Source: Candidatus Omnitrophota bacterium (GTDB taxonomy: Bacteria; Omnitrophota; Gorgyraeia; 2-02-FULL-51-18). From it: a stretch of 64,000 nt of DNA. The notes under the pieces were generated by a model. That model searched no databases. It had not been told where the DNA came from and saw nothing but the letters and a program-made list of their open reading frames with translations. The translations under genes and the position numbers were made by a program. Below, one piece after another: positions 59,165-59,915 of this stretch; within the stretch, counting starts at the first letter, position 1, and every line of letters starts with the position of its first letter. Location: assembly GCA_016197155.1 (NCBI GenBank), contig JACPWF010000036.1, positions 931 through 64,930 of the forward strand. The letters run 5' to 3'.

Positions 59165-59915
59165 AAAAAGACTAAAAAGTCACCTTGCTGTCATAAAATC
59201 TAGCTATATGCTGGAAAATCCCGTGTATCCCACACTACTCGCCGCGGGCGAGTGAAAATGTGTTGGGTGGGGACAATCAGCAGGAAAGGTTGAGAAAGTG
59301 GACGCTTCCTACATCGTAGGTTTTGTCGATGGTGAGGGTAGCTTTCATGTTGCTTTTCAAAAACGTCCTGAGTTGAAATTTGGATGGCAGGCCATCCCGG
59401 AATTTCATATCAGTCAGAATTTCACGAGTCGTGAAGTTTTGGAGGAGATTAAAAATTTCTTCGGATGTGGTTACATCAAAGCAAATGATGCTCCCGGAAA
59501 ACGCGATAAAACACTGGTGTATGTCGTTCGGGATCGAAATGATCTTCAGAACAAAGTCGTTCCATTTTTTCGGAAATTTCCATTACACACCGCAAAGCGC
59601 GGTGATTTTGAAATTTTCCAAGAGATAGTCCAAATGATGACAATGGATCGGCATTTGACTTCATTGGGGTTTCAAAAAATAGTTCGATTGGCATTCAGAA
59701 TGAATGCGAATGGAAAATACCGGAAGTTAAATATCAATTCGATATTGACGCCCAACATCCTCAGAGACTATACGCTGGATGCCCAAGTAATTGGGTAAAG
59801 ATATAGTCCGATCTTCGTGGCGACATGAAGACTCACGGAGAAATTTGTGAGCGCCCACCAAAGATCTGTGGCGGGTTAGTATTCGTAGAATATTTACGAA
59901 GAAGTAACATAAATG
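59165..59915 (+). mobile_element. Group I intron in 23S domain V (after GAGACAGT; approx. E. coli position 2604, about 11 nt 3' of the classic L2593 site) carrying a LAGLIDADG homing endonuclease gene
   Basis: Exon ...CGTCGTGAGACAGT | 751-nt intron ending ...CATAAATG | TCGGTCTCTATCTGC... Position estimated by counting 49 nt back from the sarcin-ricin loop. Confidence 0.7.
59298..59798 (+). CDS. LAGLIDADG homing endonuclease (single-motif), encoded in the domain V intron
   Basis: GTG start after AGGAAAGG. IVGFVDGEGSFHVAFQKRPELKFGWQAIPEFHISQNFTSREVLEEIKNFFGCGYI... 166 aa. Paralogous to the ORF at 57980-58471. Confidence 0.85.
   Translation: MDASYIVGFVDGEGSFHVAFQKRPELKFGWQAIPEFHISQNFTSREVLEEIKNFFGCGYIKANDAPGKRDKTLVYVVRDRNDLQNKVVPFFRKFPLHTAKRGDFEIFQEIVQMMTMDRHLTSLGFQKIVRLAFRMNANGKYRKLNINSILTPNILRDYTLDAQVIG

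Follow-up and report, generated by a model that had tools for sequence, protein, structure and literature searches.

Organization of the rRNA operon and of its introns

The window (i.e. the whole 64,000-nt stretch of DNA that was analysed) carried a complete rRNA operon at its 3' end, as delimited by Rfam (Table 1). Besides two group I introns scoring above the Rfam threshold, inserted after E. coli positions 1917 and 1931 and separated by a 14-nt exon, its 23S gene was interrupted further downstream by a 751-nt insertion, which is the subject of this report. A preliminary description of this DNA had counted the latter as the third 23S intron, and both upstream insertions were indeed recovered here. 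The three introns had GC contents of 40-42%, the 23S exons of 52% and the rest of the window of 58%. Two other segments were also in excess of the E. coli 23S gene, one of 79 nt (55766-55844, after position ~275) and one of 19 nt (56117-56135, after position ~542).

The best named protein match came from the Omnitrophica MAG GCA_016180585.1 (hereafter the sister genome), whose 16S and 23S exon sequences were 95% and about 96% identical to those of the window, respectively. This genome also contained an orthologous 751-nt intron with the same junctions, 83% identical overall. Since the nearest relative that could be found was an Omnitrophota MAG with such 16S identity, the host of the window is Omnitrophota-like and not a CPR bacterium. 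No account of rRNA introns in Omnitrophota emerged from a literature search that combined this phylum with group I introns.

The 16S gene of the window was only 1356 nt long, some 197 nt being missing at 54182/54183 (E. coli ~502-690), and the universal 530 loop GTGCCAGCMGCCGCGGTAA was absent from the whole window, even when three mismatches were allowed. The sister genome kept that segment intact (L125 3731-3927). This internal deletion could be an assembly artefact, the mark of a pseudogene or something else, and it casts some doubt on assembly quality or on the function of the operon.

Table 1. Features of the rRNA operon and of the third 23S intron (window coordinates).
Feature	Position	Strand	Remarks
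16S rRNA gene	53684-55039		Rfam
Two tRNA genes			within the rRNA operon; Rfam
23S rRNA gene	from 55490		Rfam
L1917 intron	57528-57810		283 nt, no ORF; after Ec1917
L1931 intron	57825-58491		667 nt, 163-aa LAGLIDADG ORF; after Ec1931
5' exon end	59159-59164	+	six bases GACAGU = E. coli 2599-2604; exon strand of P1
L2604 group I intron	59165-59915	+	751 nt, at L2604; 42% GC
P10 guide AGACU	59169-59173	+	pairs with 3' exon GGUCU 59918-59922, 5/5; read by eye
Internal guide UUGCUGUC	59185-59192	+	forms P1 with GACAGU/AA, 8/8 pairs
P3 5' strand AUCUAGC	59198-59204	+	pairs with GCUGGAU 59774-59780; pseudoknot with P7
P4-P5-P5a-P5b domain	59210-59281	+
P4	59210-59214/59277-59281	+
P5	59219-59222/59270-59273	+
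P5a	59229-59235/59260-59267	+
P5b	59237-59243/59247-59253	+
A-rich bulge GAAAAU	59254-59259	+
P6 (AGGA) and P6a (GUUG) 5' strands	59282-59292	+
LAGLIDADG homing endonuclease gene	59298-59798	+	166 aa, GUG start; in the P6a loop
P6a partner CAAC	59753-59756	+
P6 partner UCCU	59758-59761	+
Catalytic core, 3' half	59766-59808	+
P7	59766-59772/59802-59808	+
P3'	59774-59780	+
P8	59781-59786/59791-59796	+	J8/7 = AAAGA
P9, P9.1 and two more peripheral hairpins	59813-59901	+
P9	59813-59819/59824-59830	+
P9.1	59832-59836/59847-59851	+
Distal hairpins	~59854-59873 and 59882-59900	+	read by eye; region variable in the L2604 family
Terminal guanosine (omega-G)	59915	+	family motif GUAACAnnnnUG just before
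3' exon start UCGGUCUCUAU	59916-59926	+	E. coli 2605-2615
5S rRNA gene	60280-60396		Rfam

Insertion site and boundaries

The junctions read ...AACGTCGTGAGACAGT / intron AAAAAGAC...CATAAATG / TCGGTCTCTATCTGC..., and no other choice of boundaries, such as a shift of a single base to either side, restored the universal GACAGTTCGG. In rrlH of E. coli K-12 (2904 nt), the exactly matched GTGAGACAGTTCGGTC begins at position 2595, and the landmarks G2053 and A2654 stood at their expected places in this numbering; the 5' exon therefore ends at U2604 and the 3' exon opens with U2605. When the 23S sequence with its introns was aligned globally to that of E. coli by MAFFT, the start of the third insertion was located correctly but its end was misplaced, which is why the intron boundaries were set by exact exon motifs. 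The coordinates and the length given in the preliminary description were thereby confirmed, together with its placement of the insertion between E. coli positions 2604 and 2605, 11 nt downstream of L2593 (the site of I-CreI). The preliminary description was likewise right about the sarcin-ricin loop, whose motif AGTACGAGAGGACC begins 49 nt inside the 3' exon. The intron, designated L2604, interrupts helix 93, beside the peptidyl-transferase centre.

Fold of the L2604 ribozyme

The window copy displayed fully paired P1, P10, P3, P4, P5, P5a, P5b, P6, P6a, P7, P8, P9 and P9.1 elements (Table 1). The U.G wobble expected of P1 at the 5' splice site was formed by U59164 and G59187, and at the place of the P10 guide many members of the family described below carried an AGACC/GACCG motif. 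The identification of the insertion as a group I intron, put forward beforehand, was thus borne out by P1 with its U.G pair, by P10, by the P3/P7 pseudoknot core and by the terminal G, as well as by covariation within the family. J8/7-P7 (AAGAUAUAGUC) and the 5' strand of P7 (AGACUA) appear near-identical to the IC1 core of Tetrahymena. Tetrahymena-type IC1 introns further share the P5 extension and its A-rich bulge with the L2604 intron, which differs from them by the lack of P2/P2.1, by its location in a bacterial 23S gene and by the endonuclease gene in P6.

At default thresholds, Rfam did not report the window L2604 copy as a group I intron. A local scan with the group I model (RF00028), which the preliminary description had proposed as a check, did produce a match (38.9 bits, E = 3e-8), but one that stayed under the gathering score of 50, because the alignment is forced across the 453-nt portion of the ORF lying inside P6a. 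Since the score of the window copy was below this limit, relatives of the L2604 intron were sought.

The L2604 intron family

One genome per GTDB species was scanned with the pattern ACGTCGTGAGACAGT followed by a non-T base, which returned at least 120 loci. An insertion of the L2604 family was present at the exact same junction in at least 50 genomes from about ten phyla. All 50 introns among the matches listed had GCTGTC in their first 35 nt and ended in GTAACAnnnnTG; over the family introns as a whole, GCTGTC occurred within the first 35 nt in 52 out of 52. Two size classes were apparent among the 50 of the matches listed: 24 introns of 253-520 nt without ORF, and 26 of 696-901 nt, a length compatible with an ORF. 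About 12 further loci among the matches listed opened alike, the sequence leaving the stored locus before the end of the intron.

Among the matches listed, hosts belonged to Acidimicrobiia and Thermoleophilia (Actinomycetota), Omnitrophota, Planctomycetota, Armatimonadota, Dormibacterota, Acidobacteriota, Myxococcota and Pseudomonadota MAGs, in addition to CPR bacteria; CPR carriers with the guide GCTGTC were Gottesman-, Doudna-, Berkel-, Uhr- and Buchananbacteria. Chromosome-level assemblies were also found among the L2604-carrying genomes of the matches listed.

Other scan matches were of a different nature. Those from Elusimicrobia/Endomicrobia (scan loci L004, L009, L016, L028, L032, L038 and others) read GACAGTACGGTC and were discarded as introns, since they represent a natural U2605A variant; the position is a pseudouridine in E. 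coli. Seven loci (L006, L011, L013, L039, L042, L057 and L071) had unrelated sequence right after T2604 and no GCTGTC guide nearby, and may represent other kinds of insertion at or near 2604 or else fortuitous hits of the pattern outside rRNA genes.

Four ORF-less homologues of the L2604 intron scored 62.8-74.5 bits, i.e. above the Rfam group I gathering score of 50. Twelve ORF-less introns from other genomes were aligned with the window copy deprived of 59298-59750, and the 13 members were colinear over all core elements. From this alignment RNAalifold retrieved P1, P4, P5, P5a, P5b, P6, P6a, P7, P8, P9 and P9.1. It paired the 5' strand of P3 with the 3' exon, as the P3/P7 pseudoknot cannot be drawn by this program; that pairing was rejected in favour of the canonical P3, where four of six pairs showed compensatory changes and where the window copy has A-U in place of the G-C of the others. 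With the canonical P3 added, standard pairs filled 96.1% of the cells in the 13 members, against 31-37% when partners were slid, and compensatory changes were recorded in 42 of 74 pairs. None of 500 shuffles reached the observed pairing and covariation values. The P1 pairing with its U.G wobble was invariant in all 13 members.

A sequence profile (nhmmer) built from the 12 other members, the window copy being left out, recognized the latter in two parts, at 59157-59292 (78.7 bits) and at 59747-59921 (71.5 bits), which together span model positions 1-295, i.e. the whole model.

The endonuclease gene

The ORF of the window intron extends from the P6a loop into the ribozyme core: its last ~16 codons overlap P6a', P6', J6/7, P7, P3' and P8, and its UAA stop straddles the end of P8 and J8/7. 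The product had been described as a single-motif LAGLIDADG protein of 166 aa, which agrees with its one match to Pfam LAGLIDADG_1 (PF00961; score 83.2 bits, curated cutoff 23.1, profile positions 1-102 of 102). It also matched solved LAGLIDADG enzymes, namely I-SmaMI, the I-OnuI family, the archaeal rRNA-intron enzyme 3e54 and I-CeuI, with E values down to 5e-42. The segment GFVDGEGSF aligned with the catalytic motif of these enzymes; in I-SmaMI, both VVGFIDAEGSF and LAGFVSGDGSF were aligned with IVGFVDGEGSF of the ORF, in which the catalytic acidic residue E13 is intact. The purine-rich AGGAAAGG, a strand of P6 located 10 nt upstream of the GUG, was the sole Shine-Dalgarno-like element upstream of the ORF.

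Comparison with the 80%-identical orthologue from the Omnitrophota MAG GCA_016180585.1 gave a dN/dS of 0.087, an approximate value since dS was saturated; the gene is under purifying selection. A homologous ORF occupied the same place in all 26 ORF-size family members among the matches listed and in the sister-genome copy. It was at least 160 aa long in 24 of these 26 introns and shortened in the other two (L048 and L105, with 134 and 117 aa, respectively), which fits decay of the endonuclease gene within the L2604 family.

The proposed paralogy with the ORF of the L1931 intron (57980-58471) was supported by 41% identity. When the 27 endonucleases from other L2604 introns were compared with the window L2604 protein, the window L1931 protein and the sister-genome L2593 protein, all 27 scored best against the first. 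By these comparisons, L2604 endonucleases form a separate, site-specific lineage. The predicted DNA target around 2604/2605 was palindromic at 6 of 11 positions, a value equalled at nearby offsets, and palindromy was therefore dropped as evidence.

Relation to known introns

Site 2604 is not new. It corresponds to 23IS13, a frequent group I intron site in the 23S genes of CPR bacteria (Tsurumaki et al. 2024, J Bacteriol, PMC11270868), and it belongs to the CPR 23S positions (1917, 1931, 1952, 2593, 2604 and 2657) where LAGLIDADG_1 predominates (PMC11270868). The preliminary description had not been aware of a commonly cited intron site at this position; its numbering held, but the novelty that it implied did not, as 2604 is listed in that survey and common in MAGs. 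It had itself allowed for a site already well documented, which came true only in part, the position being 23IS13 of Tsurumaki et al. and the numbering being right. The survey covered CPR genomes only; according to its authors, 23IS13 had no reported group I introns in other bacteria. The enzyme tested there, I-ShaI, comes from the 1931 site (PMC11270868). In our literature text search it was the one description of group I introns at 2604, and the site name 'L2604' returned nothing relevant.

The 23IS13 introns of CPR bacteria resemble the window copy by their E. coli position, their group-I-like RNA and a mostly single-domain LAGLIDADG_1 protein; the difference lies in the host, which is here a non-CPR organism whose nearest relative is an Omnitrophota MAG. 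The window adds a member from a non-CPR host to a family recognised in CPR bacteria, and the scan extends the site to other phyla.

The introns known at L1917 and L1931 in Synechococcus C9/C1, Thermotoga and Coxiella have an IC1-like structure in which P5 is complex and P2 is lacking, and the ORF of the Synechococcus L1917 intron begins in P6 and continues through P7, P3 and P8 (Haugen et al. 2007, PMC1995217). L2593 introns, on the other hand, possess P2 as well as P7.1/P7.2 (PMC1995217). In the L2604 family, both P2 and P7.1/7.2 were missing, and P5 was extended and bore an A-rich bulge. Their profile, moreover, matched the window L1917 intron with 101.6 bits over all but the P1/guide region, and the window L1931 intron with 30.8 bits. 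On these grounds L2604 belongs with the L1917/L1931 type, with which it shares the IC1-like core, the complex P5, the absence of P2 and an ORF running from P6 into the core. The window L1917 intron also ended in GTAACAnnnnTG, like the L2604 family.

The insertion sites of L2604 and L1917 are different and so are the guides, GCUGUC in the former and GUAGUU in the latter; the two differ mainly in this element, and L2604 may have arisen by retargeting of an L1917-type intron. The L1931 endonuclease lineage is separate from that of L2604.

Cr.LSU, with its enzyme I-CreI at L2593, resembles L2604 in lying in the same helix 93 and in having a single-domain LAGLIDADG enzyme, but the L2593-type ribozyme carries P2 and P7.1/P7.2 and inserts 11 nt upstream. 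The 22-bp target of I-CreI, at ~2586-2607 in our numbering, spans the L2604 junction.

The sister genome (JACPAX010000007.1, L123 5132-6616) harboured both an L2593 and an L2604 intron, with the 11-nt exon CGTGAGACAGT between them. Its L2593 intron was 723 nt long by the coordinates given and carried a 160-aa LAGLIDADG gene, whose product was 27% identical to the L2604 protein over a 60-residue local match (35 bits). The 23S gene of the window differed from that of the sister genome in that L2604 was present and the L2593 intron absent. In the sister genome, either intron breaks up the region presumed to be recognized by the endonuclease of the other.

Weighing of alternative interpretations

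The intron could be real yet immobile, its LAGLIDADG protein being kept as a maturase or otherwise domesticated and the whole being inherited vertically only. LAGLIDADG maturases are known in organelles, purifying selection would be equally expected of a maturase, and the presence of the orthologous intron in a relative whose rRNA exons are 95-96% identical fits vertical descent. However, the catalytic acidic residue of GFVDGEGSF was retained, intron GC (42%) was far under that of the host (58%) and, among the matches listed, the intron-plus-gene unit recurred at this one site across some ten phyla amid ORF-less copies. Such mixing of ORF-carrying and ORF-less copies over phyla is the pattern expected of repeated homing and ORF loss. 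We consider strict immobility unlikely, and mobility of the intron is retained in what follows.

Another possibility considered was an intervening sequence, whose removal by RNase III is not followed by ligation and which would leave the 23S rRNA in fragments. Such sequences do occur in bacterial 23S genes, and the Rfam score of the window copy was sub-threshold. Their known sites lie elsewhere, in helices 9, 25 and 45 (see also PMC11270868), away from 2604. Furthermore, no long terminal stem linked both ends of the insertion, which had instead a full group I core with covariation; P1 and P10 paired with both exons, a U.G pair marked the 5' splice site, and the last base was a G. This makes a mere intervening sequence very improbable.

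Assembly chimerism, by which the intron of another organism would have been joined to the rRNA gene of the window, was given equally little credence: metagenome assembly copes poorly with rRNA operons, and the 16S gene of this one oddly lacks an internal stretch, but both exon junctions were base-precise and the independent assembly GCA_016180585.1 contained the orthologous 751-nt intron, 83% identical and with the same junctions.

Finally, a mis-numbered classical L2593 intron of the I-CreI type, a confusion that the mere 11 nt between the two sites might invite, can practically be dismissed, given the exact match to E. coli K-12 rrlH that puts the junction at 2604/2605, a ribozyme like the L1917 type and unlike the L2593 type, the slight similarity to the sister L2593 protein noted above (27% identity over 60 residues, 35 bits) and the sister genome itself, where L2593 and L2604 introns occur separately on either side of CGTGAGACAGT.

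Proposed mechanism

The segment 59165-59915 is thus, very probably, a member of the L2604 family and a mobile group I intron, whose core is IC1-like, whose P5 domain is extended and which lacks P2 and carries a LAGLIDADG gene. Splicing and DNA cleavage by this unit can be proposed by analogy with known systems. In P1, with its U.G wobble, the guide would pair with the end of the 5' exon, and in P10 with the beginning of the 3' exon. An external guanosine would attack the 5' splice site, the terminal G would dock in P7, and exon ligation would restore ...GACAGUUCGGUC....

The enzyme would be translated from the precursor or from the excised intron, the P6 strand AGGAAAGG possibly acting as ribosome-binding site. 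As this site is a strand of P6, folding of P6 and translation would compete. The single-domain LAGLIDADG protein would presumably work as a homodimer and cut intron-less 23S rDNA at about 2604/2605, within a predicted target CGTGAGACAGT/TCGGTCTCTAT (59154-59164 plus 59916-59926). The predicted substrate is an intron-less allele with the sequence spanning GTGAGACAGTTCGGTCTC or, in a longer form, CGTGAGACAGTTCGGTCTCTAT. Repair would then copy the intron into the empty allele, i.e. homing.

Significance for the L2604 family

The L2604 intron of the window is a genuine, well-preserved and ordinary member of a known family, at a site seldom listed in classical catalogues. In the literature, 2604 is viewed as a CPR feature; our scan, with at least 50 carrier genomes in all, showed that further phyla are concerned as well. 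A broader reading, quite possible although tentative, is that L2604 is a cross-phylum mobile unit not peculiar to CPR bacteria, namely an L1917-type IC1-like intron retargeted through its guide, whose endonuclease would have its own specificity for the universally conserved helix-93/peptidyl-transferase sequence, overlapping the I-CreI target.

For annotation purposes, the 23S gene of the window is thrice interrupted, the third intron is overlooked or cut short by the usual models for rRNAs and introns, and its LAGLIDADG ORF is an intron passenger and no host gene. To our knowledge, no endonuclease of the 2604 site has been characterised to date; an enzyme of this kind would add a specificity to those of natural meganucleases, directed at a universally conserved rDNA sequence overlapping the I-CreI site. 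If the broader reading is true, L2604 and L2593 elements would mutually destroy their homing sites and yet stack 11 nt apart, as they do in the sister Omnitrophota genome.
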